This document shows positions 1 through 62,077 of a stretch of 62,077 nt of DNA, in pieces. Each line of letters begins with the position of its first letter. Positions within the stretch are counted from its first letter, which is position 1. This DNA is from a virus. The notes under the pieces are model-generated. The model was not told the origin of the DNA. It searched no databases and saw only the letters and a list, made by a program, of their open reading frames with translations. The position numbers were made by a program, and so were the translations under genes. The DNA is taken from IMG/VR virus record IMGVR_UViG_3300036861_000916, positions 1 to 62,077 of that record, one strand, 5' to 3'.

Positions 1-112
1 ACGGGTCACCTGCTGGAGGCTCGTGACGACAGCAACGGGAGCCTCTTCACCTTCACGAACATCGGTGATCTGACGTTTAACCGCCGCTCCTCGACGACAG
101 GTGGGCGCCAGG
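1..112. repeat. terminal overlap, copy 1 (identical to 61966..62077)
   Basis: 112/112 nt identity between window start and window end; implies circular or terminally redundant genome with 61,965 bp unique sequence. Confidence 0.95.
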
Positions 113-408: not shown

Positions 409-1421
409 TGGCAAAGCTCGGTCAGGTCAAGTCCGATTTGGATGTCGATGGCATCCTCGGCAAGGGCGCAGCCGGGGGATATGCCGGATTAGACTCCGGT
501 GCCAGGGTCCCGGCGAGTCAACTCGGTGCTGGCGCAGCGGATGCCACCAGGTTCCTGCGAGGCGACCAGGCTTGGGCTGTGCCGCCCGCTGGAGGCAGCC
601 CGCCAACAGGGACAGGCTTCCGGCACGTAACTTCGGGATCCGAGGACGCTGCCGCGAAGTTGGTGGAGAACGCCGATGTCGCCGGCGCGGCGGCCATCGC
701 GGAGAGCAAGCTCGGCCTGAACTTCGCCACGCACTCGAACGCGAACGACCCGAGTGCGGGCGAGAAGGCAGCCCTGGCGGGCACCAGCGGCACCCCGGGG
801 TCGGGGAACAAGTTCGTCACCGACGGCGACGCGCGGAACACGAACTCACGGGCGCCGACGAGCCACGGGGCCAGCCTCCACGACGGCACGGTGGAGGCGA
901 CCGTCAACAAGGGCGCTGCCAGCGGCTATGCCGGATTGGATGCCGGATCGAAGGTGCCGACAGCGCAGCTTGGGGGAGCGGGCGCCGACTCAACCAAATT
1001 CCTGCGAGGTGACCAGTCGTGGGCCGTCCCGCCAGGAGCCGGGGCGGCACGCGAGGATCTGGTAGCGGCATGGGACTCTTCAAGCACGAAGACGAACATC
1101 GGCGCATCGTTCGTGGACGTCTACACGCAGGCGAACTCGGATGGTAAGAGCGTTCAGATCGATACGAACGGGAAGACCAATGTCAAGCTGATGGTGCTCT
1201 GGAACAAGATCGGTTCCGGAACGCAGACGGTGCAGGTGCTGGAGGTGGGGACCGCCAACGTGCTGATCTCGATGGACGTCGTGAATGGCCGCAACGTGAG
1301 CGCGCTCACCGCCATTCCTGCCGCGCTGCAGAACAGCGTGAAGTTCTACAAGCTGCAGGCGAAGTCCACGACTGCGGCGGACGATCCGGTTTTCGAGGGC
1401 GCCAGTATCTACCTGAAGTAA
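408..1421 (+). CDS. tail/head fibre-like protein with internally duplicated GYAGLD...VP..QLG...FLRGDQxWAxPP motif
   Basis: 337-aa ORF, ATG overlaps upstream stop (TAATG); motif repeated at aa ~23-60 and ~172-210; position among virion genes. Confidence 0.6.
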   Translation: MAKLGQVKSDLDVDGILGKGAAGGYAGLDSGARVPASQLGAGAADATRFLRGDQAWAVPPAGGSPPTGTGFRHVTSGSEDAAAKLVENADVAGAAAIAESKLGLNFATHSNANDPSAGEKAALAGTSGTPGSGNKFVTDGDARNTNSRAPTSHGASLHDGTVEATVNKGAASGYAGLDAGSKVPTAQLGGAGADSTKFLRGDQSWAVPPGAGAAREDLVAAWDSSSTKTNIGASFVDVYTQANSDGKSVQIDTNGKTNVKLMVLWNKIGSGTQTVQVLEVGTANVLISMDVVNGRNVSALTAIPAALQNSVKFYKLQAKSTTAADDPVFEGASIYLK

Positions 1422-1454
1422 GGCTTTTCGCTCGATGGATAGGAGGAAAACTCA

Positions 1455-1739
1455 GTGGCGGTTGATACGACGCAGAAAGCGATCAATCTGTGCAGCCGGC
1501 TCGCGGATGCTGCCGACCGGCTGATGATTGCGGTGGAGGACCTGGCCAACCTGAAGGACGAGAAGGAGAGCAGCGGCCTCGTTCTCACCGCAGCGGCGGT
1601 AGAGGACGCTCTGGCTACCTCCTCGCTCAAGCACGCGAGCGGGGCGAACTTCAACAGCGTCATCTCCTCCGGAGCGGCCATCAAGTCATTCATGGAGACC
1701 AACTTCCACGATGATGTGCTTGCTCAGGTCAGGCCCTGA
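1455..1739 (+). CDS. hypothetical protein
   Basis: 94-aa ORF co-oriented in structural operon, GGAGGA upstream of GTG start. Confidence 0.5.
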   Translation: MAVDTTQKAINLCSRLADAADRLMIAVEDLANLKDEKESSGLVLTAAAVEDALATSSLKHASGANFNSVISSGAAIKSFMETNFHDDVLAQVRP

Positions 1740-1764
1740 CACGGCCAGGAGTTAGGAGCTGGAG

Positions 1765-2127
1765 ATGGCAGTCAGTGACAAGCCGTGGAACGGCAGCAGC
1801 GCCAACTACCGCGACGCTGGCGCCTACTGTGACGCCTGCCTCGTCGACACGAATGAGGGCCGCGAGAAGGTTGTCGCCAACTGCAAGCTCCCCGTGAAGG
1901 AGCCCGGCGGTGCCGTGAACCGCAACGCCGCGCACAACGCTGCCGCGCGGATCAATCAGCTTGACGCGCCCGCCGACGCGAAGAAGGCCGCCGCACGCAA
2001 GCTCGTGGCCATCTACCGCCGGGACCTCAAAGAAGAGCCGCCGGAGAGCCTGCTGGGCCTGGCGGGGATGACGAGCAACCGCGCGATGAGCAGCCGGATC
2101 CGGCGCGCCGCGGGGCGCGAGGGGTAA
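1765..2127 (+). CDS. hypothetical virion-module protein
   Basis: 120-aa ORF with AGGAGCTGGAG upstream of ATG; no family recognised. Confidence 0.5.
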   Translation: MAVSDKPWNGSSANYRDAGAYCDACLVDTNEGREKVVANCKLPVKEPGGAVNRNAAHNAAARINQLDAPADAKKAAARKLVAIYRRDLKEEPPESLLGLAGMTSNRAMSSRIRRAAGREG

Positions 2128-2130
2128 CGC

Positions 2131-2838
2131 GTGGCGGTCGTCGGTGACATCATCCGTGCGCTGCTCGTGACGCGCTCCCTGGTGGACGGGAAGGCGAAGG
2201 ACGCCGACGCGCTGCCGACCGCTGTCTTGCGGCGGAATGGGACCGCCAGCGCGGCGATCGTGACCGTCACGGATGTAGGACTGGGACGCTATCTGCTGAC
2301 GGCGACGCTCGCGACCGCGCAGGGCTGGCTCACCGGCGACCATTACGCGATCGACGCGACGTGGACGATGGAGAGCACCGCCGATCAGGTGGAGGTCGTG
2401 CTGCAAGGGCAGATCGCGCCGTTGGTGACGGTCGAGGAGGAGAGCGCGCCGGCGAGTGACCGGACGATCCGCCGCGGCGACACGGTGACGCTGGCGTTCA
2501 CCGGCCTCGGGGACGTGACCGGGCGCACGAAGCTCTGGGTCACGGCGAAGGCGTCAACGGCGCACGATGACGAGCACGCCATCCTCCAGGTGACGGAGGT
2601 GGACGGCCTGACGCGGCTGAACGGCGCGGCGCCGGAGGATGAGACGCTGGCCGCGATAGACGTGACCGACCAGGCGGCAGGCGACCTGGACGTGACTATC
2701 GACGCCGAGGTGACTGCCGAGCTCGTGGCCACCTCGCGGCTGCGCTATGACGTGCAGGTGCTCACGGCTGATGGCGTGTTCACCCTGGCCGAGGGGCTGC
2801 TCGCGATCACGGACGACGTGACGAGGGCGATCGAGTAG
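2131..2838 (+). CDS. hypothetical structural protein
   Basis: 235-aa ORF, tightly packed after previous stop, GTG start. Confidence 0.5.
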   Translation: MAVVGDIIRALLVTRSLVDGKAKDADALPTAVLRRNGTASAAIVTVTDVGLGRYLLTATLATAQGWLTGDHYAIDATWTMESTADQVEVVLQGQIAPLVTVEEESAPASDRTIRRGDTVTLAFTGLGDVTGRTKLWVTAKASTAHDDEHAILQVTEVDGLTRLNGAAPEDETLAAIDVTDQAAGDLDVTIDAEVTAELVATSRLRYDVQVLTADGVFTLAEGLLAITDDVTRAIE

Positions 2839-2846
2839 GAGGGGCT

Positions 2847-3347
2847 GTGGCTTATACCGAGGCGCAGATCCGCGAGTTGATCGTTCGGTTCACGCAGGCG
2901 GACCGGCAGCCGATACTCACGGACACCGAGATCGACAACCTCGTCGCGCGCTCGAAGCGGCAGGACTCTTCGCGCCGCCCGCCGACCGACGCCGCGTGGG
3001 AGCCCACATGGAACATCAACGCCGCCGTCGCTGTCGGCTGGGAGTTGAAGGCGGCGCTCGTCGTGACGGACTTCGACGTCCGCAGCGCCGACCAGGACCT
3101 GAAGCGTAGCCAGATGCACGAGATGTGCCTGCGCCAGGCGGACCGGTGGAAGCGCCGGGTGACGGACAGCGCGCAGCTCGAGGGCAGCCTGCGCCGGAAC
3201 CTGCCGGCGGGCGTGTTCTCCAACGCGAACGACGAGCTGTGGGACGTTGCCGGCGGCTACGGTCCCGTCTGCCGCTGTGGAAATCCCTCCTGCTGCCTCT
3301 GCGGCAGTGGCGAGGCGTCACCAGGCGTTCGTTGGGTAGACGACTAG
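2847..3347 (+). CDS. hypothetical protein (possible head-tail connector component), Cys-rich C-terminus
   Basis: 166-aa ORF, GGAGGGG upstream; position upstream of adaptor genes. Confidence 0.5.
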   Translation: MAYTEAQIRELIVRFTQADRQPILTDTEIDNLVARSKRQDSSRRPPTDAAWEPTWNINAAVAVGWELKAALVVTDFDVRSADQDLKRSQMHEMCLRQADRWKRRVTDSAQLEGSLRRNLPAGVFSNANDELWDVAGGYGPVCRCGNPSCCLCGSGEASPGVRWVDD

Positions 3348-3358
3348 GAGGAGAGGCT

Positions 3359-3709
3359 TTGGCCGAAGAGCTGAATGCGGTACTGATATGCGCTGAGGAG
3401 TTGGTCGTTGAGCTAGTCGGTCCGACGCCGGACGGCACCAAAGAGGCAGTGCTGGTGATGAGGGACCCGTTCGAGGGTTCAACTATTCAGGGCGTCCAGT
3501 TGAAGATCCAATTCACAGGTGACTTGGACCGCTTTCCGGTCGGCAAGGTCTACAGAGGTACGATCAGCATTTGCGAGAAGGTGCCTTCGTGGAGTGTCAG
3601 CATCGCGGATGAGCAGGAGAGCGCGGGCGTGCAGCCGATCCGCGCCAAGTATGGTGTGAAGCCGGCGACGCTCATCGTTGGTCCGCCGCCGAAGCCGGAG
3701 GAGAAGTAG
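3359..3709 (+). CDS. hypothetical protein
   Basis: TTG at 3359 in frame of track ORF 3125..3709, preceded by GGAGGAGAGG; 5' part of the track ORF overlaps the previous gene. Confidence 0.45.
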   Translation: MAEELNAVLICAEELVVELVGPTPDGTKEAVLVMRDPFEGSTIQGVQLKIQFTGDLDRFPVGKVYRGTISICEKVPSWSVSIADEQESAGVQPIRAKYGVKPATLIVGPPPKPEEK

Positions 3710-3710
3710 C

Positions 3711-4175
3711 ATGGCGGACGTCTTCTTTACACACGGCAAGAGGGCAATCGCTGACCAAGCGGCAGCGGACGCGATCAACCTTGTTGGCACGACCGTCAAA
3801 ATTGCCCTGGTCGACTCGACCTACGCGCCCAGTCCAGACGATCAGTTCGTTGATGACGGCAGCGCGAACGATGTCACGAGCCATGAGATCAGCGTCACGG
3901 GCTACACGGGCGGCTTCGGCGGTTCGGGACGGAAGTCCCTCGCTGGCAAGTCGATCACGGCGGACCTCACGAACGACCGCGCCGAGTTCGACGCCACTGA
4001 TGTCACATGGACGGCGCTCGGGACGGGGGCGACGATCGGCGGCGCGGTGCTCATCAAGGAAAGAACCGCCGATACTGACTCGCAGGTCATCGCCTTTTTT
4101 GACCTGACGAACACCCCGACGAACGGTGGAGATGTGACTCTAAGTTTCAACGTAGAAGGGTTGCTTAACTTCTAG
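3711..4175 (+). CDS. hypothetical virion protein
   Basis: ATG 3711 (MADVFF...) in frame of track ORF 3678..4175, GGAGGAGAAG 6 nt upstream. Confidence 0.6.
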   Translation: MADVFFTHGKRAIADQAAADAINLVGTTVKIALVDSTYAPSPDDQFVDDGSANDVTSHEISVTGYTGGFGGSGRKSLAGKSITADLTNDRAEFDATDVTWTALGTGATIGGAVLIKERTADTDSQVIAFFDLTNTPTNGGDVTLSFNVEGLLNF

Positions 4176-4214
4176 AACTCGCGTCGCCCTTCGCGTTACC
4201 GTCGTTCGTAGGAG

Positions 4215-4592
4215 GTGCCCGTGTCCGCCGATATCCCGAACTGGCAGATCGACCAGGCGCGTGAGAGCTTCAACGAGAGCCTGCCCTCCGTGGCGCTCGT
4301 GCAGCACCGCACGTCTGCGAGCGATGGGCGCGGCGGGCAGACGGAGAGCTACGACGCGGGGACCGCACTCGACTGCCGCTTGCTGCAAATGGGTTCGCAG
4401 GAGTCGGCGGGGCGCGAGGAGGCAACGGGGCACGTCGCGAGCTCCTGGTGGAACATCCTGCTGCCGGCGGGTTCCGACGTGCGGACGACGGATCGTATTG
4501 TGATCGATGGTCAGACCTATGAGGTGATCGATCACGGAGACGCGAGGAGCCAGTCGCTGGTGATGAAAGTCGCGGCGCGAAGGGTGAAGTAA
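4215..4592 (+). CDS. head-tail adaptor / head-closure protein (SPP1 gp16-like)
   Basis: 125 aa, GGAGG upstream of GTG, C-terminal ...RIVIDGQTYEVI... pattern and position typical of the family (from memory). Confidence 0.55.
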   Translation: MPVSADIPNWQIDQARESFNESLPSVALVQHRTSASDGRGGQTESYDAGTALDCRLLQMGSQESAGREEATGHVASSWWNILLPAGSDVRTTDRIVIDGQTYEVIDHGDARSQSLVMKVAARRVK

Positions 4593-4595
4593 GGT

Positions 4596-4719
4596 GTGCA
4601 GGGAGGCAGCACCCCCACACGCGTGGGGAAATGTTCGTGGCCCCCGTGTCCACAGGCACGAGCTGCGGTCCACCCCCACAGGCGTGGGGAAATGAGCAAA
4701 CTATGGCGCCTCCCTGCAC
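4596..4719. repeat. 12-bp perfect inverted repeat bracketing the mini-CRISPR array
   Basis: GTGCAGGGAGGC at 4596..4607 and its reverse complement GCCTCCCTGCAC at 4708..4719. Confidence 0.85.
4605..4694 (-). CRISPR. mini-CRISPR array: 29-nt type I-E-like repeat, 32-nt spacer, degenerate terminal repeat
   Basis: Minus strand: CATTTCCCCACGCCTGTGGGGGTGGACCG (4694..4666) / spacer 4665..4634 / CATTTCCCCACGCGTGTGGGGGTGCTGCC (4633..4605); 61-nt period, CCCCAC-N4-GTGGGG stem, 8-nt tail ending ACCG. Confidence 0.7.
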
Positions 4720-4766
4720 GATAGGATTATCGGCTGCGCGCGGCCTCATCTGGAGGGTGACTTCCG

Positions 4767-5123
4767 TTGGCTGCTGATGCCATTACCATCAAACTGGTCG
4801 TCGAGAGCAACAAGCTGACTGGGCTCCCGGCGGCGGTGCGCCGCCGACTTTCACTCGCGGTGCGCAAGGTCGCCGCCGATGTCCAAGCGCGGGCGCAGCA
4901 GGTCGTGCCCGTAGACACGGGGGCCACGAAGAACTCGATCCGGGCAAAGGCGGTCGACGAGCTGACGTCCGAGGTCGTTGTCGGCACCCATTACGCGGCG
5001 TATCTGGAGTTCGGCACGCACAAGATGCCGGCCCGGCCTTATCTGCGGCCCGCGGTGGAGGCGGTGCGGCCCGCGTTCGAGGCGGCGATCGGGCAGGCGA
5101 TCGAGGAGGCGGCGGGCGGATGA
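4767..5123 (+). CDS. HK97 gp10-like head-tail/tail-completion protein
   Basis: 118 aa with VPVDTGATKNSI ... YAAYLEFGT ... ARPYLRPA, the hallmark pattern of the HK97-gp10 family; TTG start. Confidence 0.8.
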   Translation: MAADAITIKLVVESNKLTGLPAAVRRRLSLAVRKVAADVQARAQQVVPVDTGATKNSIRAKAVDELTSEVVVGTHYAAYLEFGTHKMPARPYLRPAVEAVRPAFEAAIGQAIEEAAGG

Positions 5124-5293
5124 GAACGCCAAAGCGGAATATCCTCATCTTCGTCTGCGAACGCTGCAGTCACGAATGGGCGGACGAGGCGACAGGCCGT
5201 CTTGGCGCGAGGCACTGGTGTCCGGTTTGCCATCGCGGGCGTGGCGAGTTTAAGTCTGCTGCGAGGCAGCGGGAGGCGGCGGGCGGTGGCTGA
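5120..5293 (+). CDS. small zinc-ribbon protein (57 aa, below ORF-track cutoff)
   Basis: ATGA overlap with upstream stop; CERC-x17-CPVC; its stop overlaps the GTG 5286 start of the next gene. Confidence 0.4.
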   Translation: MRTPKRNILIFVCERCSHEWADEATGRLGARHWCPVCHRGRGEFKSAARQREAAGGG

Positions 5294-5726
5294 CATCAAT
5301 GAGCTGGGCCTGTGCGCGGAGTTCCTCTTCGAGGAGCTGACCGGGCACGCGCCACTCACCGCGCTCGTTGGCGACCGGGTCTATCGAGACCTCGCGCCGC
5401 CGGGGGCTGCCCTGCCGTATGCCATCTTCTCGTTCGTGGCGGGCTTGGACCGTAACGCGATGGGAAGCCGCTCCATCATCTTCACGCGGCCCTTCTGGGA
5501 CATCAAGGGCGTCACGAAGGGCACCGACAGCACGGCGGCGGACGCCATCGCCGACGCGATCCACGGGGCCGTGAACGGGAAGCAGCGGCTCAATGTGGCC
5601 GACGGCGAGCTAATCGTCCTCGGTTGCCGCAGGGAGAGCCTGATCGAGTTCCCGGAGCTGACCGAGGACCAACTGTATCTGCACCGCGGCGGAGAATACC
5701 GCGTCTTTTGCCACATCAAGCGATAG
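5286..5726 (+). CDS. DUF3168-like tail terminator / tail completion protein
   Basis: GTG 5286 in frame of track ORF 5202..5726, GGGAGG upstream; ...LTALVGDRVYRDLAPPGAALPYAIFSFV... typical of the family; sits just before the major tail gene. Confidence 0.6.
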   Translation: MADINELGLCAEFLFEELTGHAPLTALVGDRVYRDLAPPGAALPYAIFSFVAGLDRNAMGSRSIIFTRPFWDIKGVTKGTDSTAADAIADAIHGAVNGKQRLNVADGELIVLGCRRESLIEFPELTEDQLYLHRGGEYRVFCHIKR

Positions 5727-5736
5727 GGGGTGAACC

Positions 5737-7344
5737 TTGGCTGAGCGGGCGACTGTGTTCGAGACGACTCTTCTGGGGGTGGAGGCGACGCCGGGCGTCG
5801 CCGTCTCCCCCGTCCGGCGACTGCAGGCAACCCAGTTCGAGTGGAGCCCGCAGGTGCCCGTTGAGCCCTTCATCCCAATGGGGAGCAAGGCCGCGACGAC
5901 AGCCGTGCGCCAGAAGGAGTGGACCGAGGGCGACATCACCGGCGTCGTGGCCTTCAACGATCTGATCTACCTGCTCTCCAGCGTGTTGACCTCCGCCACG
6001 CCGACGACGCCGACGGGCGCGACGAACACGCGGCGGTGGCGCTTCTTTCCGGCGAACTACGGCCCCGACACGCCCATCACCTACACGGCACAGAGGGGTT
6101 CCTCCGTGCGCGCGGAGCAGGCGACGCACCTCCTGATCGACGCCTTGACCCTGCGTTTCACGCGCGAGGAAGCGGCCGTCTCCGGTTCCATCCTGGCGCA
6201 GGAGACGCAGGAGAGCGTGACGATCAGCGCCGGGCGCAACGAGGTGCAGCAGGTCACCAAGGGCACGCACACGGGCGGCACGTTCACGCTCACCTTCGAG
6301 ACGCAGACGACAGCCGCGATCGACTGGGACGCGAGCGCCTCGGAAGTGCAGACCGCCCTTGAGGCTCTGTCGAACATCGCCCCTGGCGATGTCGCGGTGA
6401 CCGGCAACGAGCAGGGACCGTGGACGGTGACGTTCACCGGCGCGCTGGCGGCGTCCAACCGCACCCAGATGACCATCGACGGCACGTTGCTGACGGGAGG
6501 CGCCGGCGAGGCGGTGACGACGGTCACGCAGGGCCAGACGCTTTCCAACGTGACCGAGATGCCCGTGGATCCCGACATCGTCAGCGTCTTCATGGGTGAC
6601 GCGCTCACGGACGAGGTGCAGACAGTCACGGTGCAGGCGACGGGCGGCACGTTCGCGCTGTCGTTCACCGATTGGGCGGGCACGACGCACACGACGACGG
6701 CCATCGCCGAGGCAGCAGCCGCCGCCACCGTGCAGACGGCGCTGGAGGCGCTCGCGTGCTTCGTTGTCGGCGACGTGACGGTGACGGGCTCCGCAGGCGG
6801 TCCGTGGACGGTGACGTTCGGCGGGCGCTACTCCGGCAACAACGTGCCCATGCTCGTCGGCGACGGGACACTGCTCACGGGGATCACGGCCCCGGCGATC
6901 GCCGTCGTCCAGACGACCGCGGGCGGGCTCTCGAAGCTGCTGCGGGTCTCCGAGTTCGAGTGGGCCATCGCGGACAGGTTCACGGGTCAGTTCACCCTTG
7001 ACGACGCAGAGCCTTCGTTCAGCGCGGTCGTGGAGCGATCGCCGGGGACTACGGCGCAGATGGTGATGCAGTATGACGCCGACGCAGCGGCCATCATGGC
7101 CAATCTGCGCGCGAAGGACACGAAGTTCCTACGGCTGGAGGCGTGGGGGCCGGTCATCGAGTCGGACTTTCGGTATCGGTTGCGGCTCACGGTGCCGGTC
7201 AAGTTCACCGGGAACGACCAGAGCGACCAGGACGACGTCTACTCGAAGACCTTCGACGCGACGGCGATGTATTCGACCGTGAGCAGCTTCAATGGCTTTG
7301 TCGAGGCGGTCATAGACGCACCCATTGCCGGGCTGGAGGCATAG
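5737..7344 (+). CDS. major tail protein with two inserted tandem ~123-aa domains
   Basis: 535 aa, position between tail terminator and chaperone genes; internal repeat GGTF.L.F...VQTALEAL...GDV.VTG...GPWTVTF. Confidence 0.55.
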   Translation: MAERATVFETTLLGVEATPGVAVSPVRRLQATQFEWSPQVPVEPFIPMGSKAATTAVRQKEWTEGDITGVVAFNDLIYLLSSVLTSATPTTPTGATNTRRWRFFPANYGPDTPITYTAQRGSSVRAEQATHLLIDALTLRFTREEAAVSGSILAQETQESVTISAGRNEVQQVTKGTHTGGTFTLTFETQTTAAIDWDASASEVQTALEALSNIAPGDVAVTGNEQGPWTVTFTGALAASNRTQMTIDGTLLTGGAGEAVTTVTQGQTLSNVTEMPVDPDIVSVFMGDALTDEVQTVTVQATGGTFALSFTDWAGTTHTTTAIAEAAAAATVQTALEALACFVVGDVTVTGSAGGPWTVTFGGRYSGNNVPMLVGDGTLLTGITAPAIAVVQTTAGGLSKLLRVSEFEWAIADRFTGQFTLDDAEPSFSAVVERSPGTTAQMVMQYDADAAAIMANLRAKDTKFLRLEAWGPVIESDFRYRLRLTVPVKFTGNDQSDQDDVYSKTFDATAMYSTVSSFNGFVEAVIDAPIAGLEA

Positions 7345-7463
7345 CGGTGGGGCAGGAAGAGGGGCGCGGCCTCGTCGTCATCGCGACGGCCCTGTTCCTG
7401 CTGTTCATCGTCGCGTATCTGATGGGCTATAAGGAAGGCCGAGGAGGAGATCGATGAGAAGAT

Positions 7464-7488
7464 GGGCCGGCGCGATGACAGCCGGCCC
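7464..7488. terminator. GC hairpin between convergent major-tail gene and minus-strand moron
   Basis: GGGCCGGC (7464..7471) / 9-nt loop / GCCGGCCC (7481..7488). Confidence 0.5.
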
Positions 7489-7492
7489 GACC

Positions 7493-8038
7493 TTACTTCT
7501 CCTCGGGCTTGCCCGGTGGCTCCAGGCGCCCGAGCCCGAGCACCTGGGGAGCAAGGCGCTTCACCTCGCGGGCCAGATCTACCGGATCCGAAGTCCAGAC
7601 GGAGCCGTCGCCAAATCGGATCCGGTTGACGTAGCCGATAGCCGTGTAGGTGTGCTCATGGCCATAGTCGAGAGCAGCATCGCTGTCCTTTTCGCCCGGC
7701 TTCAGCACCCGATAGCCGCCATCGGTGCGACCGGGAAGGATGAGGCGCGAACCGATCATGGCTTCGTTGAACGGATCCCACTTCAGAACGCCCAGCTCGA
7801 GGGCTATGATGTCCTTCTGGCCGGTGTTCTGCCAGGTGAATTCCTCGCGGAAGGTCGGCGAGTAGCCCGGGCCGTCGAGGGAGTTCCCGACCGAGAAGGC
7901 GACGATCTTGAGATGAGGGCAGATATCAGCGACCAGCGCGGCGCGCGAGGCATAGTTCAGCTTGCAGTAGTCGGCGGCCACGGCAGCGCTGCTTGCGATC
8001 GAGAGTGCCAGCACGAACAAGGGGAGCACTTTGCTCAT
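7493..8038 (-). CDS. secreted protein of unknown function (moron, antisense inside tail operon)
   Basis: 181 aa, N-terminal signal peptide MSKVLPLFVLALSIASSAAVA; only minus-strand gene in 0.4-18.8 kb. Confidence 0.65.
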   Translation of the reverse strand: MSKVLPLFVLALSIASSAAVAADYCKLNYASRAALVADICPHLKIVAFSVGNSLDGPGYSPTFREEFTWQNTGQKDIIALELGVLKWDPFNEAMIGSRLILPGRTDGGYRVLKPGEKDSDAALDYGHEHTYTAIGYVNRIRFGDGSVWTSDPVDLAREVKRLAPQVLGLGRLEPPGKPEEK

Positions 8039-8061
8039 AGTGCTGTCATGATCGGCTGGCA

Positions 8062-8460
8062 GTGCGGCCCGCTATAGACCATGGAGGGATTGTGTCGGAA
8101 CTGAAGGAGCTGCTCCACCGGCCCATCGACGGCGCCGTGGACTGGTGCGGCGTCGTCGTGAAGTTCAGCGCCAACCGCGCCGCGCACACGCACGAGTACG
8201 AGAAGCGACTGCGCCAGGCGATCACGAAGGCACGCGAGGAGGGTGAGGAGGCGAGCGTCCATGAGTTCTACGCCGTGGCGCTGCCGCCGCTCCTGATCTC
8301 CTGGGACCTGGAGGATGACGGCAAGCCCGTCCCGATCGCCGCGGAGGCGCTGTTCGCGCTGCCGTTTCCCTTCCTGCAGGCGCTCGCCGACAAGATCACG
8401 GAGCTGTCACGCCCTTTCGCAGCGACGCAGAAGCCAGAGCCTTCCGGCAGTTTCTCGTGA
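8062..8460 (+). CDS. tail assembly chaperone (gpG-like)
   Basis: 132-aa acidic ORF immediately upstream of tape measure region; position-based call. Confidence 0.5.
   Translation: MRPAIDHGGIVSELKELLHRPIDGAVDWCGVVVKFSANRAAHTHEYEKRLRQAITKAREEGEEASVHEFYAVALPPLLISWDLEDDGKPVPIAAEALFALPFPFLQALADKITELSRPFAATQKPEPSGSFS
8412..8418 (+). promoter_or_regulatory. candidate -1 slippery heptamer C CCT TTC
   Basis: X XXY YYZ pattern in the 0 frame of 8062..8460; the -1 frame is open from here into ORF 8457..8654. Confidence 0.3.
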
Positions 8461-8654
8461 GTTCGGGGAGCCGCGGGGAGTGCCACGAGGACTATGCGCT
8501 CGTGAAGGCCGCGCGCTATCTGGGCGTCGCGCCCTGGATTTTGGAGCAGCGGAGCACCTACTGGCGGGATCTGGCGCTCGTCATCGAGAGTAGCGAGCAC
8601 TGGGCGGAGGCAGAACTGATGAAACGGGCGCGCACGAAGGGACGGCGGAGATGA
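8457..8654 (+). CDS. gpT-like extension ORF (possibly expressed only as G-T frameshift fusion)
   Basis: 65-aa ORF in the -1 frame relative to 8062..8460, GTGA overlap. Confidence 0.4.
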   Translation: MSSGSRGECHEDYALVKAARYLGVAPWILEQRSTYWRDLALVIESSEHWAEAELMKRARTKGRRR

Positions 8655-8690
8655 GACAGGCCGAAGGTTTCATGCCCCCGGCCTGTTCCG

Positions 8691-8794
8691 GTTCGCTTCG
8701 TCTCGGCTCGGCTCGCTTCGACTCGGCTCGCCTCGCTTCGGCTCGGGTCGCTTCGCTTCGGCTCGGGTCGCTTCGGGTCGGCGAGCGGTTCAGC
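8691..8794. repeat. pentanucleotide array (NNTCG)x18 plus GGCGAGCGGTT end motif
   Basis: 18 consecutive 5-mers ending in TCG (8691..8780) followed by a motif resembling the punctuation of the 34.8-35.4 kb array. Confidence 0.9.
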
Positions 8795-8865
8795 TTTGGA
8801 TGTGCTTTTAACAGCAGCAAGATCCAGGCCAATCCGTAGAGGCTCATGCAGATAGAGGGGACGGA

Positions 8866-11307
8866 ATGGCGACCGTCGCACAACTGAAGGCCATCATCGG
8901 CGCCGACACCGGCGGTTTCGACCGCGGGATCCAACACGCGCAAGCGGGGATGGAGCGGTTCGCCAAGTCCGTCACCGGCATAGGCGCCGGTCTCTCTGCC
9001 GTCCTCACGGTGCCGATCGTGGCGTTCGGCGCAGCCGCCGTCCGGTCGGCGACCGAGATGGACAGCCTGACGCGCGGGCTGCGGGCCGTAGCGGGCTCCG
9101 CCGGAGAGGCAGACAAGCAACTCTCACGCCTCCGCGAGATCGCGAAACTCCCCGGCCTCGGTCGGGTCGAGGCGATCCGGGCTTCGATCAGCCTTCAAGC
9201 GGCCGGTATCTCGGCGAAGAGGGCGGAGCGGTCGCTCCTGGCCTTCGGCAACGCATTGGCCACCGTGGGCAAGGGCAAAGCCGATTTGGACGGCGTCACC
9301 CTCGCACTGACGCAGATCGCCAGCAAGGGGAAAATCTCCGCCGAAGAGATCAACCAGTTAAGCGAGCGCGTTCCCCAGATCCGCAAGGCCATGCAGGCTG
9401 CCTTCGGGACGGCGGACACCGAGGTTCTGCAGAAGGCCAAGCTGTCGGCAACGGAGTTCATCGACGGCATCACGAGGGAACTGCTGAAGCTGCCACGGGT
9501 GACGGGCGGCGCCCAGAACGCCTTCGAGAACCTCTCGGACACCGTGAACGACGCGCTGTCGACCATCGGCAAGAACGTGCTGCCCACGGTGACGTCGCTG
9601 GCCGAGCGGCTGGCAGATACGCTTACCGACCTCACCGGCAAGTTCAGTGCGCTCACGCCGCAGACGCGCCAGGCAATCCTTGTGTTCGCGGCCTTTGCGG
9701 CGGCTATCGGGCCGGTTCTGATCGGCGTGGGCGCGCTGACTGCGGCGGTGGGTGCGCTCGGCGGTCCTATCAGCATCCTCATCGTCGGGGTGGGTGCGCT
9801 GGCTGCCGCCTGGGCGTCGAACTGGGGCAACATCCAGCAGGTCACCTTCGCCGCCTGGTCTACGATCGTGGGTGCCTTCCAGCGGGGCTCTGCCATCGTG
9901 TCCGAGTTGTGGGACGCGCTTACCAAGCTCCTCACGGGAAAGTGGAGCGAGGCGATGGGGCGGATCACCGGCGCCATGGGGAAGCTCGGCTCCTTCGCCA
10001 CGGACACGGGCCGCGAGTTCGTCGGCAACCTCATCGGCGAAATGGCGAAGTGGCAGGTCGCGCAGCAGAGGCAGTTCGACAAGGTGCAGAAGGGCGCCAC
10101 GGACGCCGGCGAGGGGATAGGCCGCGCGCTGGAGATCCCCGCGAAGAAGAAGCTCGATCCCGTAGCGCAAGAGCTGAAGCAGTTCGCCGAGGCGATGGCG
10201 AGCGCGCAGCGTGCCCTGGCCGCCGCCCGGGCCGGCGAGGGCGAGGACGTGCAGGCCCTCGCCGCGCAGTATCGCTTCATCGGCAAAGAGCGGCTGCGGG
10301 ACCTGGCCAACGTCCAGATGCAGACGAAGGGCATCAATGACGCCCGCGAGGCGCAGAAGCGGGCGCTGGAAGCCGTCGACAAGGAGTTGGACCAGTCGCG
10401 GATCCGGTTCTTCGAGGCCAACGCGGCGGGCACCGTGGCGGCGGAGGCGTGGCGCCTCTTCGGGGAGGCTGTGCTCAAGGCACACCCGGGCGTGAAGCGG
10501 TTCAACGAGATCATGAAGCTGCTCTCCGCAGATCAGCGGGAGGCGGCCCAGTCGGTCTTCGATTTGAAGCGCTCCCTGGAGATGGAGACCGAGCTGAATG
10601 CCGCCTCTGACAGGGTGCGGGATCTGCGGAACGAGCTGAAGACGCTGACGACGAGCAGCAGGGAGACGAAGGTCGCCATCGAACTCTTCCCGGCGACGTT
10701 CAAAGCAGGCACGGCAGCGGGGCAGACCTTCCAAGAGGTGGTCCAGGGATTGAACGCCGATCAGCAGGCGCTGATCCAGCGCACGAAAGGCCTGCAGGAT
10801 GCGATTGCTGCCGCGCAGGCGCACAAGGCCGCGCTGGCTGACCTCGCGCAGAGCTTCCAGGGTGTCTTCGAGCAGGCGTTCGCGAACCTGGACAAGGGCT
10901 TCGCGGGTTTCTTCCAGTCAGTGATTCAGGGCGTGGAGCAGCTCATCCAGCAGATCGCCGCCCGATTTCTCGCGGCCCAGATCACGAAGTTGCTTTTCAG
11001 CCTCGTTCCGGGAGGCGGCGACTTCCTCTCCGGACTGATCGAGGGTGGCAACCTGAAGGGCAAGGCGATGGGCGGGCCGGTTGGGGCCGGGCAGCCGTTC
11101 GTAGTCGGCGAGAAAGGACCGGAGCTCTTTGTCCCGCGCCAGGCGGGACGGATCGAGCCGGCGGCGGGCGGGATGCGTCCGATCGTCGTGAACATGACGG
11201 TCGTCACGCCGGACGCGAACTCGTTTCGGAGGAGTGAGAGCCAGGTCAGCCAGAGCGCCGCGATGGCGCTGCGACGGGCGGCGAGCCGTGCGGGGGAGGG
11301 CTTCTGA
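8866..11307 (+). CDS. tape measure protein
   Basis: 813 aa, Ala/Gly-rich hydrophobic central segment, coiled-coil C-terminal half, canonical position. Confidence 0.85.
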   Translation: MATVAQLKAIIGADTGGFDRGIQHAQAGMERFAKSVTGIGAGLSAVLTVPIVAFGAAAVRSATEMDSLTRGLRAVAGSAGEADKQLSRLREIAKLPGLGRVEAIRASISLQAAGISAKRAERSLLAFGNALATVGKGKADLDGVTLALTQIASKGKISAEEINQLSERVPQIRKAMQAAFGTADTEVLQKAKLSATEFIDGITRELLKLPRVTGGAQNAFENLSDTVNDALSTIGKNVLPTVTSLAERLADTLTDLTGKFSALTPQTRQAILVFAAFAAAIGPVLIGVGALTAAVGALGGPISILIVGVGALAAAWASNWGNIQQVTFAAWSTIVGAFQRGSAIVSELWDALTKLLTGKWSEAMGRITGAMGKLGSFATDTGREFVGNLIGEMAKWQVAQQRQFDKVQKGATDAGEGIGRALEIPAKKKLDPVAQELKQFAEAMASAQRALAAARAGEGEDVQALAAQYRFIGKERLRDLANVQMQTKGINDAREAQKRALEAVDKELDQSRIRFFEANAAGTVAAEAWRLFGEAVLKAHPGVKRFNEIMKLLSADQREAAQSVFDLKRSLEMETELNAASDRVRDLRNELKTLTTSSRETKVAIELFPATFKAGTAAGQTFQEVVQGLNADQQALIQRTKGLQDAIAAAQAHKAALADLAQSFQGVFEQAFANLDKGFAGFFQSVIQGVEQLIQQIAARFLAAQITKLLFSLVPGGGDFLSGLIEGGNLKGKAMGGPVGAGQPFVVGEKGPELFVPRQAGRIEPAAGGMRPIVVNMTVVTPDANSFRRSESQVSQSAAMALRRAASRAGEGF

Positions 11308-38561: not shown

Positions 38562-38633
38562 TTTGGCCTGGTGTAATGGGTAACACGCCCGGCACTGAAC
38601 CGGGAGACGGAGGTTCGAGGCCTCCGGCCAGAC
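38562..38633 (+). tRNA. tRNA-Gln(CUG)-like, with A instead of U at position 33
   Basis: 72-nt cloverleaf folded by hand: TTTGGCC/GGCCAGA acceptor (U1-A72 as in bacterial tRNA-Gln), GTGT/ACAC D, CCCGG-CACTGAA-CCGGG anticodon arm, GGAGG-TTCGAGG-CCTCC T-arm. Confidence 0.6.
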
Positions 38634-38674
38634 CCGAACCCAGATTGATGAGCCGCCGGTAGCAGAGGCGGACG

Positions 38675-61124: not shown

Positions 61125-62077
61125 CGTCACCGCCCTCAACCAGCTAATCCAGACTGCCGGGGAGCACATCCTCCCGCAGGCGCCCACGGCCTCGGCGACG
61201 AAGGCCCTGCTGCGGATGGGCAATGCCCTCGTCGGTGGTGACGCCGATGGCTGCTACCTTGGGCTCAACGCGCCCAGTGGCTGGGTCGGCGACTACCTGC
61301 GCATTCAGCTCAACGCCGTTGATGTGCTCCGGCTCGACAGCCTCGGGAACCTCGGCGTTGGGGTCTCCGCCCTCTCGGGCTTCCGCATCCACGCCGAGGC
61401 CGACGGCAACTTCGACAACATGGTCCGTGTTAACAACGTTAACACGGGCAATGGTGCCGCCGCCGGCTCCTCGGTGCAGGTGCGCTGCGGGGGCACTGAC
61501 ACGGCCAGTGGTCGCCTAGCCGCGTGGGGGGGGAGTCACGCCTCAACCCTGCGGGCCAACCGGGTCAGCGTCGTTGCCAACTCGGACGCCACCGGTATCA
61601 CCCTGGAAGCCGACAACGCCTCGCAGGACATCCGATTCGCCGTCGCCACCCTTGGCGAACAGATGCGCCTCTCCAGTTCTGCAGAACTGTTGCTTGGCAC
61701 AACGTCCTCACTGGCGCGGCTCGCAGTCGTGGGCCGGGCGGATCAGATTCAGTGTGTGGTGAGAGGTTTCAGCACCCAGACGACACACCTCCAGGACTGG
61801 CAGACGAGTGGCGGGGCCGTTCTCGCGTACGTTCAGGGAGATGGCCCATGCTATTTCCCCCAGGCTGGCATTGGCGTTTTCGCTGCACAGGCCGGCGTTG
61901 GACTCTTCGTCACGGGCGGCGACACAGCGGCAGTGACCCAGGTTTTGCGTCAGTTGACGTCCCAGACGGGTCACCTGCTGGAGGCTCGTGACGACAGCAA
62001 CGGGAGCCTCTTCACCTTCACGAACATCGGTGATCTGACGTTTAACCGCCGCTCCTCGACGACAGGTGGGCGCCAGG
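61111..62077 (+). CDS. fibre-like structural protein, 5' part (continues through the junction to 408)
   Basis: ATG 61111 overlaps the previous gene by 14 nt; frame 1 read codon-by-codon has no stop up to the window end, so it is absent from the ORF track. Confidence 0.65.
   Translation, partial: MLRNDVTALNQLIQTAGEHILPQAPTASATKALLRMGNALVGGDADGCYLGLNAPSGWVGDYLRIQLNAVDVLRLDSLGNLGVGVSALSGFRIHAEADGNFDNMVRVNNVNTGNGAAAGSSVQVRCGGTDTASGRLAAWGGSHASTLRANRVSVVANSDATGITLEADNASQDIRFAVATLGEQMRLSSSAELLLGTTSSLARLAVVGRADQIQCVVRGFSTQTTHLQDWQTSGGAVLAYVQGDGPCYFPQAGIGVFAAQAGVGLFVTGGDTAAVTQVLRQLTSQTGHLLEARDDSNGSLFTFTNIGDLTFNRRSSTTGGRQ
61966..62077. repeat. terminal overlap, copy 2
   Basis: identical to 1..112. 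Confidence 0.95.

Follow-up and report, generated by a model that had tools for sequence, protein, structure and literature searches.

A one-spacer type I-E mini-CRISPR array in the late operon of a temperate phage, with a spacer resembling the tail-completion gene of close relatives

Introduction

Virus-borne mini-CRISPR arrays constitute a described class of genetic elements that has been tied to conflict between viruses, as was stated in the original prediction for the locus discussed here (PMC6858448, PMC7099407, PMC8616872). Arrays of this class harbor one or two spacers, are not accompanied by cas genes and have their targets near the array. The spacers resemble sequences in the genome of the carrier without being identical to them, and the leaders of the phage-borne arrays are unlike those of the host arrays (PMC7099407, PMC6858448, PMC8616872). 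Proximity between array and target was seen also in the viruses SPV1 and SPV2, where it was referred to as unexplained (Medvedeva et al. 2019, PMC6858448). In another phage element, called Cracr, a pseudo-spacer displays a partial, PAM-proximal match to the promoter of a host cas or toxin gene (bioRxiv 10.1101/2024.10.29.618823). Mini-arrays are thought to allow viruses to turn the CRISPR machinery of the host against competing viruses.

Here, we analyze a locus found in a stretch of viral DNA of 62,077 nucleotides (referred to below as the window, i.e., the whole stretch at its full length). The locus is a clear bacterial case of type I-E, with the crRNA unit, the origin of the spacer, the AAG motif of a relative and the changes in the carrier all directly readable.

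Results

The array is read from the minus strand, where it starts with a complete type I-E repeat (repeat 1, 4666..4694, CATTTCCCCACGCCTGTGGGGGTGGACCG), followed by a single spacer of 32 nt (4634..4665, CAGCTCGTGCCTGTGGACACGGGGGCCACGAA) that matches the gp10-like gene discussed below, and by a terminal repeat with a degenerate tail (repeat 2, 4605..4633, CATTTCCCCACGCGTGTGGGGGTGCTGCC). The sequence reads exactly as had been claimed for these segments (4694..4666, 4665..4634 and 4633..4605 on the minus strand), and the period of 29 + 32 = 61 nt confirms that the repeat and spacer have the dimensions of type I-E. Other anatomical details of the original prediction also hold, i.e., the CCCCAC-N4-GTGGGG hairpin is present in both copies, the 8-nt tail ending in ACCG is intact in repeat 1, the two copies are identical at 24 of 29 positions, and four of the five differences are clustered in the terminal 5 nt of copy 2. 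The repeats have diverged only in the loop and in the 8-nt tail of repeat 2, which is degenerate (GTGCTGCC) and located outside of the predicted crRNA. Each of the repeats is predicted to fold as a stem of 6-7 bp with a 4-nt loop. The 22-nt core of the repeat is found at only two sites in the 62 kb, both in the array (0 expected from 100 shuffles), and a search of the window for further hairpins of the form CCCCNC-N3-5-GNGGGG yielded none beyond the two repeats.

As proposed originally, the array resides in a 174-nt gap (4593..4766) within the head-tail operon. This gap is bounded on the left by a head-completion (head-closure) gene (4215..4592, plus strand; PF05521, phrog_501) and on the right by an HK97-gp10-like tail-completion (Neck1) gene (4767..5123, plus strand; PF04883, phrog_5), and the array is antisense to both of these late genes. 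It is bracketed by a perfect 12-bp inverted repeat with the left arm at 4596..4607 (GTGCAGGGAGGC) and the right arm at 4708..4719 (GCCTCCCTGCAC). A leader would be expected in the 72 nt upstream of the array on the minus strand (4695..4766), which have 61% GC. The 90 nt upstream of the array showed no similarity to any of the leaders from 20 genomic arrays, and a promoter and terminator scan of 4200..5200 returned nothing on either strand, with no sigma-70-like site.

In type I-E systems, Cas6e cuts the repeats to give a crRNA with an 8-nt handle. On the basis of the array anatomy and of Cas6e processing in E. coli, the segment 4613..4673 (minus strand) is predicted to yield one mature crRNA of 61 nt, composed of an 8-nt handle, the 32-nt spacer and a 21-nt hairpin handle. 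Its 5' handle would come from the last 8 nt of repeat 1 (4673..4666, GTGGACCG), and its 3' hairpin handle from the first 21 nt of repeat 2 (4633..4613), which are intact. With the two hairpins and the repeat 1 handle, all parts needed for one crRNA are intact.

The assignment of the repeats to type I-E is borne out by genomic arrays in which the same hairpin and handle are found at a 61-nt period beside I-E cas operons (L030, L023). The 24-nt segment composed of the hairpin and handle of repeat 1 occurs without any change at 17 genome loci, which with few exceptions are arrays with a 61-nt period, and repeat 1 is identical at 27 of 29 positions to the repeat of a 23-copy array (L017). The cas neighborhood was inspected in two of the 17 loci; the array with the identical hairpin and handle adjoins genes for Cse2, Cas7e, Cas5e, Cas6e and Cas1e in L030, and genes for Cse1, Cse2, Cas7 and Cas5 in L023. 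The search for genomes with such a repeat beside cas genes, which had been suggested together with the prediction, has in this way recovered bona fide I-E arrays. A scattered REP-like element was considered and rejected, because the repeat sits in arrays with a 61-nt period that adjoin cas genes. Single exact matches are found at two loci, one of which is a solitary repeat (L022) and the other one exact copy inside a 48-repeat array of a variant repeat (L026). The terminal repeats of several genomic arrays (L003, L014, L030) are likewise degenerate and resemble the 3' end of repeat 2. MAGs with the identical hairpin and handle belong to the Chloroflexota, Bacillota, Cyanobacteria, Armatimonadota and Gemmatimonadota, and because of this spread over several phyla the repeat does not identify the host. 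An Rfam scan of 4400..4900 at E <= 10 gave chance-level matches only and no CRISPR-DR family, which is a weak test because few repeat variants are covered by Rfam.

The window encodes an integrase as well as terminase, portal, capsid and tail proteins, and the carrier is a temperate phage genome. A direct repeat of 112 nt at the ends of the contig fits a circular assembly, in agreement with the 62-kb circle assumed in the original prediction. An independent Logan assembly (L031, from SRR11742962) is 100% identical to the window over 851..10163, array included. The earlier statement that there is no cas gene in the window is supported by searches of different kinds: matches of the 77 window ORFs to Pfam were all to non-Cas families, the 25 families listed of 41 in PADLOC include no Cas family, and tblastn of the window with six I-E Cas proteins gave no match. 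Comparison of 4000..5800 with GenBank phages using blastn returned no match, and tblastn of the major tail protein returned only short actinophage matches with a coverage of 10-16%, from which no host is inferable. When 220 spacers from genomic and IMG/VR arrays were compared to the window, only chance matches of at most 20 nt were obtained, and tblastx of the loci with these arrays against the window revealed no related prophage.

The closest relative of the carrier (L009/L010) is about 93% identical at the DNA level, with 92-97% identity on both flanks of the array. At the array position it has an ORF of 86 aa instead of the array, and the homology to L009 breaks where the left arm of the bracketing inverted repeat starts (4596..4607). 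Carrier and relative stem from sequencing runs with neighboring accession numbers. Other related genomes (L011, L012 and L013) have no gap at the array position. As judged from these alignments, the array is an insertion in this phage lineage, and it was seen in one phage lineage only. The same one-spacer layout is found in other viral contigs (L001/L008 and L194); for the spacers of these mini-arrays, neither IMG/VR nor the contigs that carry them yielded a target.

The spacer is similar to the gp10-like gene of the carrier itself, where 4899..4930 (plus strand) matches at 29 of 32 positions, or at 30 of 33 when the preceding G is included (0 of 100 shuffles); the similarity ends at the spacer boundaries. 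This near-protospacer is located 231 nt from the array and is preceded by CAG (4896..4898). The match to the neighboring gene had been overlooked in the original prediction. Mismatches are found at spacer positions 4, 12 and 15, and the differences comprise one conservative change in a first codon position (Leu/Val) and two synonymous changes in third positions, i.e., the pattern expected for a homologous gene. Translated in frame, the spacer reads QLVPVDTGAT(K), which is part of the gp10-like gene, and in the orientation of the repeat it corresponds to the coding strand of gp10, as required for type I-E.

The canonical type I-E PAM is AAG, and in type I-E adaptation in E. coli the last base of the repeat is the base immediately before the protospacer. 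Here too, the last repeat base (G) is the same as the base just before the protospacer. Spacer position 4 lies in the seed defined in E. coli, where a mismatch weakens interference by E. coli rules. On the 5' side of the site, the closest relative (L009/L010) has AAG and the carrier has CAG; the ten closest gp10 homologs have a Lys codon at this position. Among 105 distinct gp10 homolog sequences, the PAM position is occupied by AAG or AAA in 85 and by CAG in 12, such that CAG is not unique to the carrier and a PAM escape mutation is suggested rather than proven; uniqueness of CAG was for this reason rejected as proof of escape.

When IMG/VR and metagenome contigs were searched with the spacer and with near-spacer variants, neither gave a hit, and a perfect target was also missing from 160 gp10-homolog loci from IMG/VR and metagenomes, where the best site has at least 7 mismatches. 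The best target candidate, identified via protein homologs, is found in the closest relative (L009/L010; 993..1024 in L009), with 3 mismatches, one of which is at seed position 4. On the evidence of its sequence, the spacer is derived from the conserved "VPVDTGAT" stretch in the gp10-like tail-completion gene of a close relative.

Discussion

Taken together, it is very likely that the locus is a real type I-E-derived array with a spacer taken from the gp10 gene of a relative. Given the match of this spacer to a conserved part of the tail-completion gene in close relatives, the element most likely borrows the CRISPR machinery of the host to exclude competitors. The complete functional statement, i.e., that of a virus-borne type I-E mini-CRISPR array that excludes related phages via host Cascade and Cas3, is probable, and we favor it with some reservation. 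According to this model, the minus strand would be transcribed in the lysogen or in the infected cell, and host Cas6e would cut after each hairpin to yield one 61-nt crRNA, composed of GUGGACCG, the spacer and CAUUUCCCCACGCGUGUGGGG. The crRNA would then be loaded by host Cascade, which together with Cas3 would destroy incoming relatives that have a matching gp10 and an AAG PAM, and the outcome would be heterotypic superinfection exclusion. The carrier itself would be spared by having CAG in place of AAG and by its mismatches at spacer positions 4, 12 and 15, the first of which falls within the seed defined in E. coli. These mutations in its own site would presumably provide an escape from self-targeting also in the real host.

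Some of the observations may be accounted for in other ways. The 3' end of repeat 2 is like the terminal repeats of genomic arrays (L003, L014, L030), no promoter or host-like leader was found, and the array was seen in one phage lineage only, which would fit a non-functional relic, i.e., a piece of a host array from its trailer side (the last spacer and the degenerate terminal repeat) that was taken up by illegitimate or spacer-mediated recombination and is unexpressed, neutral and without effect. We consider such a relic unlikely because all parts of the crRNA are intact, with divergence limited to the 8 nt that are dispensable. Furthermore, the spacer fits a conserved site in the relatives of the carrier with the correct PAM geometry, while the own copy is mismatched, and the same layout is found in unrelated viral contigs; moreover, phage genomes are compact, and no spare DNA is present at the array position in the closest relatives. 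A role in which the element shields the phage from host immunity, with no attack on other phages, would apply if the transcript were an anti-CRISPR RNA, either a Racr-like decoy that ties up Cas6e/Cas7 or a Cracr that redirects Cascade to silence cas or safeguard genes. There is precedent for both, as the phage repeat mimics RacrIE1 and RacrIE2 inhibit type I-E (PMC10651486) and type I-E Cracr arrays exist in prophages (bioRxiv 10.1101/2024.10.29.618823). Nevertheless, this role is quite unlikely for the present element, where two repeats enclose a full-length 32-nt spacer in place of the solitary, spacerless repeat of a Racr, and where the whole spacer matches a phage structural gene beside AAG (in L009/L010), whereas the pseudo-spacers of I-E Cracrs are 21-24 nt long and match the host casA promoter.

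Another group of explanations starts from the similarity between the spacer and the gene next to it. On the plus strand, 4634..4666 pairs with gp10 codons 44-54 (4898..4930) to form ~30 bp around the gp10 start; the two arms of the inverted repeat (I1) show 91% complementarity across 33 nt, and the fold of 4580..4950 has z = -5.2, with 0 of 100 shuffles folding as well. The element could accordingly be a cis-acting structure of the late mRNA, i.e., an RNase III site or a means of translational control, in which the CRISPR-like repeats would be incidental. However, the duplex is an automatic consequence of having an inverted spacer/protospacer pair, and a structural role would leave the I-E-identical repeats, the exact 32-nt length and the AAG geometry unexplained. 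The duplex has no counterpart in L009-L013, L032 and L033 and is therefore not a conserved regulatory feature, which makes this proposal very unlikely. The own 29/32 match at a distance of 231 nt might alternatively serve self-regulation, where crRNA-guided Cascade would bind the gp10 site without cleavage and dampen transcription of the late operon, for example in the prophage; repression of transcription by partially matching Cascade is known from the CreR/CreA and Cracr literature. We regard self-regulation as highly improbable, given that the site is intragenic rather than at a promoter, that CAG and the mismatch at position 4 should weaken binding (by a rule from E. coli I-E, which may differ in the host of the carrier), and that published mini-arrays show the same "similar but not identical" pattern, which was read as avoidance of self-targeting. 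Because spacer/protospacer identity can generally mislead assemblers, an assembly chimera of a host CRISPR array and phage DNA was also considered. It was rejected, and its probability is negligible, since the sequence continues on both sides of the array as phage DNA with 92-97% identity to L009/L010 and the independent Logan assembly is identical; in addition, the spacer and the own gp10 gene are identical over no more than 17 consecutive nt, in inverted orientation.

Exclusion of related phages through host Cascade and Cas3 is a statement about function, and a separate proposal concerns the origin of the array beside its own protospacer. The array may have been born there by conversion of host immunity, a speculative route to which we assign a low probability. 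In such a scenario, a host would have gained a spacer against an ancestor of the phage, which would have escaped via a change of the PAM from AAG to CAG and a change at seed position 4. The repeat-spacer-repeat unit would subsequently have been captured by recombination that began at the homology between spacer and protospacer, and it would now be used against relatives without the escape changes. If true, this origin would explain the spacing of 231 nt between array and target, and the 12-bp inverted repeat at the homology breakpoint might be an insertion scar. The locus also has a bearing on annotation. Arrays with two repeats do not reach the thresholds of CRISPR finders, but they may be recognized when the spacer has a match at a paralogous site elsewhere in the genome.

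Comparison with known systems

The window array shares with canonical type I-E arrays (of the E. coli K-12 type; L017, L016/L030 and L021/L023) the 29-nt repeat, the 32-nt spacer and the 61-nt period, as well as the CCCCAC-N4-GTGGGG hairpin, the 8-nt handle ending in ACCG and the degenerate terminal repeat. Also the 5' AAG PAM at the protospacer is the same (here in L009/L010). In contrast to the canonical arrays, it is composed of two repeats and one spacer without an adjoining cas operon, it has no recognizable leader and it is antisense in a phage late operon. Furthermore, canonical type I-E repeats usually start with GT, while the window repeat starts with CA.

Among the virus-borne arrays, those of the Saccharolobus portogloboviruses SPV1 and SPV2 (PMC6858448) also have one or two intergenic spacers and no cas genes. 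The spacers of these viruses target a relative that is ~92% identical, to be compared with ~93% for the nearest relative here. In both cases the orthologous site of the carrier has point mutations and the target is found near the array, and the same role has been proposed, i.e., heterotypic superinfection exclusion through the Cas proteins of the host. However, SPV1 and SPV2 are archaeal, with type I-A/I-D-associated repeats and host-like leaders, while the window array is bacterial, of type I-E and without a host-like leader. For SPV1 and SPV2 there are perfect reciprocal targets and competition experiments, whereas in the present case the best target has 3 mismatches.

Racr (PMC10651486) and Cracr (bioRxiv 10.1101/2024.10.29.618823) likewise are phage repeats without cas genes that rely on host Cas6/Cascade. 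The former is a solitary repeat with no spacer, in contrast to the two repeats that flank a 32-nt spacer in the window element. In the described type I-E Cracr, the pseudo-spacers are shortened to 21-24 nt and correspond to promoters of host cas genes, while the window spacer has the full length and its match is in a structural gene of a phage.

The mini-arrays of phages and prophages reported by Faure et al. 2019, as summarized in later accounts (PMC7099407, PMC8616872, PMC11656645), are described there as having one spacer between two repeats, one of which is complete while the other may be truncated, which is also the layout found here. According to the same accounts, their repeats are like those of complete CRISPR-Cas systems, their leaders are unlike those of the host and their carriers are mostly temperate phages, all as for the present locus. 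A further property that these summaries give for the mini-arrays is that the spacers match similar viruses rather than the carrier; the candidate target of the window spacer is likewise in a close relative, although with 3 mismatches. The element is of a known kind, and an unusually clear bacterial example of it.

Architecture of the mini-array

The mini-array is read from the minus strand at 4605..4694 and is composed of a first repeat, CATTTCCCCACGCCTGTGGGGGTGGACCG (4694..4666), a 32-nt spacer, CAGCTCGTGCCTGTGGACACGGGGGCCACGAA (4665..4634), and a second repeat, CATTTCCCCACGCGTGTGGGGGTGCTGCC (4633..4605), i.e., exactly the sequence described in the original prediction. The values reported there were also reproduced on recomputation: the repeats are identical at 24/29 positions, with one difference in the loop and four in the degenerate last five bases of the second copy, and the period is 61 nt. 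For each repeat the predicted fold is a hairpin of 6-7 bp with a 4-nt loop. The 22-nt repeat core is found at only two sites in the 62 kb, both in the mini-array (0 expected from shuffles), and the window holds no CCCCNC-N3-5-GNGGGG hairpins besides these two.

The mini-array takes up most of the 174-nt gap (4593..4766) in which it had been placed, flanked on the left by a head-completion gene (4215..4592; PF05521/phrog_501) and on the right by the HK97-gp10-like tail-completion gene (gp10; 4767..5123; PF04883/phrog_5). Downstream of gp10 are a gp17-like tail-completion gene and then the major tail gene. The latter contains an internal duplication of ~210 nt with ~67% identity (6239..6446 vs 6611..6829), which suggests a repeated domain; relatives also have one. 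A promoter scan around the mini-array (4200..5200) recognised no minus-strand promoter.

The carrier genome and the insertion site

A 112-nt exact terminal direct repeat (1..112 and 61966..62077) fits a circular, complete assembly. Pfam matches of the 77 candidate ORFs include capsid, SPP1-type portal, large terminase, tape measure and a GTA-like distal tail module, as well as amidase, integrase, a sigma-70 factor and a DNA methylase. The PADLOC families listed (25 of 41) are methyltransferases, MzaA and mad2. No Cas family was found among the Pfam matches of these ORFs, and tblastn with six type I-E Cas proteins gave no match in the window, in agreement with the earlier claim that the 62 kb carry no cas gene. 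This gene content marks the window as a temperate tailed phage that lacks cas genes. An independent Logan assembly (L031, run SRR11742962) is 100% identical to the window, a JGI contig, over 851..10163, mini-array included, and an assembly artefact or chimera is therefore very unlikely.

In five more distant relatives (L011, L012, L013, L032 and L033; gp10 identity 68-73%) the stop of the head-completion gene overlaps or abuts the gp10 start, leaving zero gap. The closest relative, represented by L009 (JGI 3300036860) and L010 (Logan SRR11742948), shares 92-97% identity with the window in both flanks, but between window positions 4595 and 4838 the mini-array is replaced by an unrelated 86-aa ORF (L009 601..861; L010 237..497) with a CPNC motif and no family assignment. 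Judged from these alignments, the mini-array was inserted at a position that varies between relatives. In L032, a gene for an HNH endonuclease lies immediately before the head-completion gene. The head-tail junction thus seems to be an insertion hot spot for accessory DNA in this group of phages.

A perfect 12-bp inverted repeat (4596..4607 / 4708..4719) encloses the mini-array. Homology with the closest relative breaks off on the left (4594/4595) just where the left arm begins, and this arm takes in the final 3 nt of degenerate repeat 2. In the predicted minus-strand RNA the inverted repeat closes a 13-bp stem around the mini-array. It could have been left behind by the insertion, or it could serve as a stem in the transcript.

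Relation to genomic type I-E arrays

Arrays with the repeat core are present in IMG/VR; they have a 61-nt period and reach 15 repeats. The 24-nt hairpin plus 8-nt handle (the 3'-terminal 8 nt of the repeat, the predicted crRNA 5' end), CCCCACGCNTGTGGGGGTGGACCG, is found exactly in 17 loci of a species-representative genome collection, nearly all of which are 61-nt-period arrays. A 23-copy array in a Thermosynechococcaceae MAG has the repeat GTTTTCCCCACGCCTGTGGGGGTGGACCG, which differs from repeat 1 only in the first two bases. Genes for Cse2, Cas7e, Cas5e, Cas6e and Cas1e adjoin the array of locus L030, and genes for Cse1, Cse2, Cas7 and Cas5 that of L023, every gene exceeding its NCBIfam cut-off. 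The type I-E assignment is thus upheld. Because genomic copies sit in periodic arrays, in L030 and L023 beside type I-E cas genes, the objection that the repeat is missing from bona fide I-E arrays is overturned, and a reading of the repeats as REP elements is ruled out.

Since the window-type repeat is present across several phyla, it cannot name the host of the phage. None of 220 spacers from the genomic and IMG/VR arrays matches the window, and the region upstream of the mini-array is unlike the leaders of 20 genomic arrays compared. A Chloroflexota MAG (L022; JBHOQS010000007.1) has a lone repeat, GTCGTCCCCACGCGTGTGGGGGTGGACCG, at 1506..1540 (minus). The stretch has 65% GC, and a second copy is absent within 8 kb. 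Five IMG/VR UViGs from isolate genomes (L002, L003, L004, L006 and L007) hold ordinary multi-spacer arrays with the repeat GTTTTCCCCACGCCTGTGGGGGTGTTTCY and one common 90-nt leader; these are probably host arrays inside provirus predictions, not phage-borne.

Origin of the spacer

The spacer reproduces the coding strand of gp10 at 4899..4930 with 29/32 identities (30/33 with the preceding G; 0/100 shuffles), at a distance of 231 nt, a near-match absent from the original prediction. The similarity stops at both spacer ends. In frame, the spacer translates to QLVPVDTGAT(K), the carrier's gp10 to QVVPVDTGATK and that of the closest relative to QIVPVDTGATK. Of the three differences from the carrier's gp10, one is a conservative change at a first codon position and two are synonymous at third positions, i.e., divergence as in a homologous gene, unlike that of a decaying non-coding copy. 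The mini-array is very probably a real I-E-derived array with a spacer taken from the gp10 of a relative.

The canonical type I-E PAM is AAG. The G that ends the repeat corresponds to the final PAM base, as in E. coli adaptation. The spacer geometry agrees with type I-E: in the orientation set by the repeats, AAG is the 5' flank of the site in L009/L010 on the strand identical to the spacer. In the carrier this codon is CAG (Gln), vs Lys in 10/10 closest homologs; among 105 distinct gp10 homolog sequences, AAG is found in 52, AAA in 33 and CAG in 12. Because Gln is a minority state yet not unique to the carrier, PAM escape is suggested, not proven. The phage encodes a single tRNA (38562..38635), a tRNA-Gln whose CTG anticodon reads CAG, the same codon that replaces the Lys/PAM codon; this agreement is probably a coincidence.

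The carrier's gp10 mismatches the spacer at positions 4, 12 and 15. For Cascade of E. coli, the seed includes position 4, and the base at position 12 is flipped out and unpaired; the host may differ from these rules. Position 4 is C in the spacer, G in the carrier and A in L009; a mismatch of both known variants at this position would fit escape under selection, although only two sequences are compared. A perfect target was found neither in IMG/VR nor in the metagenome collection nor among 160 gp10-homolog loci, and the best candidate, L009/L010, has the mismatch at seed position 4.

Proposed function and alternatives

We propose that the minus strand of the mini-array would be transcribed and cut by Cas6e after each hairpin to yield a 61-nt crRNA (4673..4613), which would be loaded on the host's Cascade, such that superinfecting relatives would be destroyed by Cas3. 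Taken as a whole, this functional statement is somewhat favoured by the elements present at the sequence level, i.e., a complete I-E crRNA unit, a spacer derived from the gp10 of a relative, a mismatched self-site, AAG in the closest relative and a cas-less temperate phage. It is weakened by the scans and searches above, which found no promoter, no host-like leader and no perfect target. All crRNA-bound parts are intact and the differences are found only in the loop and the discardable last 8 nt of repeat 2, a conservation that fits targeting. It is this selective preservation, together with the target geometry, that a neutral relic of a host array leaves unexplained, and we regard such a relic as unlikely.

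A decoy or regulatory anti-CRISPR RNA is quite improbable: Racrs are solitary repeats (PMC10651486) and the described type I-E Cracr has 21-24 nt pseudo-spacers against the host casA promoter (bioRxiv 10.1101/2024.10.29.618823), both unlike the mini-array, although competition for Cas proteins could accompany targeting. The spacer/gp10 pair is also predicted to form a long-range duplex in the late mRNA (z = -5.2), but such a duplex follows automatically from an inverted pair and relatives lack it, which makes it very doubtful that the duplex is the function of the pair. Self-repression by Cascade bound at the carrier's own gp10 site, for which the partial spacer/gp10 match is the sole argument, appears extremely unlikely.

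Comparison with known virus-borne arrays

One-spacer arrays of type I-E-like character and with the window's layout are also present in three further viral contigs. Two of these, L001 (12031..12119, minus; IMGVR_UViG_3300025325_000102) and L008 (4960..5050, minus; IMGVR_UViG_3300002503_000175), have a common array, CTTTTCCCCACGCATGTGGGGGTGAACCG followed by the 32-nt spacer ACGTCCAGGATACGGCTTGGGTCGCCTTCGTC and CTTTTCCCCACGCACGTGGGGGTGAATTG, in which degeneracy is limited to the tail of the second repeat, as in the window. This spacer has no further match in IMG/VR or its own contig. L001 also has a lone repeat at 6208..6236 (plus), ~5.8 kb from its array. The third, L194 (282..370, minus; IMGVR_UViG_3300013830_000079), consists of GTATTCCCCACGCATGTGGGGGTGGACCG, a 32-nt spacer and ATATTCCCCGCATGTGCGGGGGCACGTCT, with exactly the window's handle. 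Next to this array comes a hairpin that resembles a terminator and has a T-run, GCGGGCCGATTTCGGCCCGTTTTTG. For the spacer of L194, neither IMG/VR nor the contig itself yielded a target.

In published accounts, viruses and prophages are described as carrying one- or two-spacer arrays without cas genes, with host-like repeats, spacers that match related viruses and are similar, not identical, to the carrier genome, and, in phages, leaders unlike those of hosts (PMC7099407; PMC8616872; PMC11656645). The window locus resembles these in location, size, lack of cas genes and a mutated self-site. Its repeat type is found in several phyla, and the best candidate among related viruses, L009/L010, is mismatched in the seed. 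SPV1 and SPV2 are 92% identical, the carrier's own orthologous loci bear point mutations, and the targets are located near the arrays, a proximity whose cause the authors describe as unclear (PMC6858448). A point-mutated own site and a putative target site near the array are also found in the window, which is, however, bacterial type I-E. The interpretation as a virus-borne I-E-type mini-array is supported by the repeat identity and the cas-less phage genome. The locus belongs to an already described class and introduces no new principle; it is a clear, testable bacterial type I-E example of that class.
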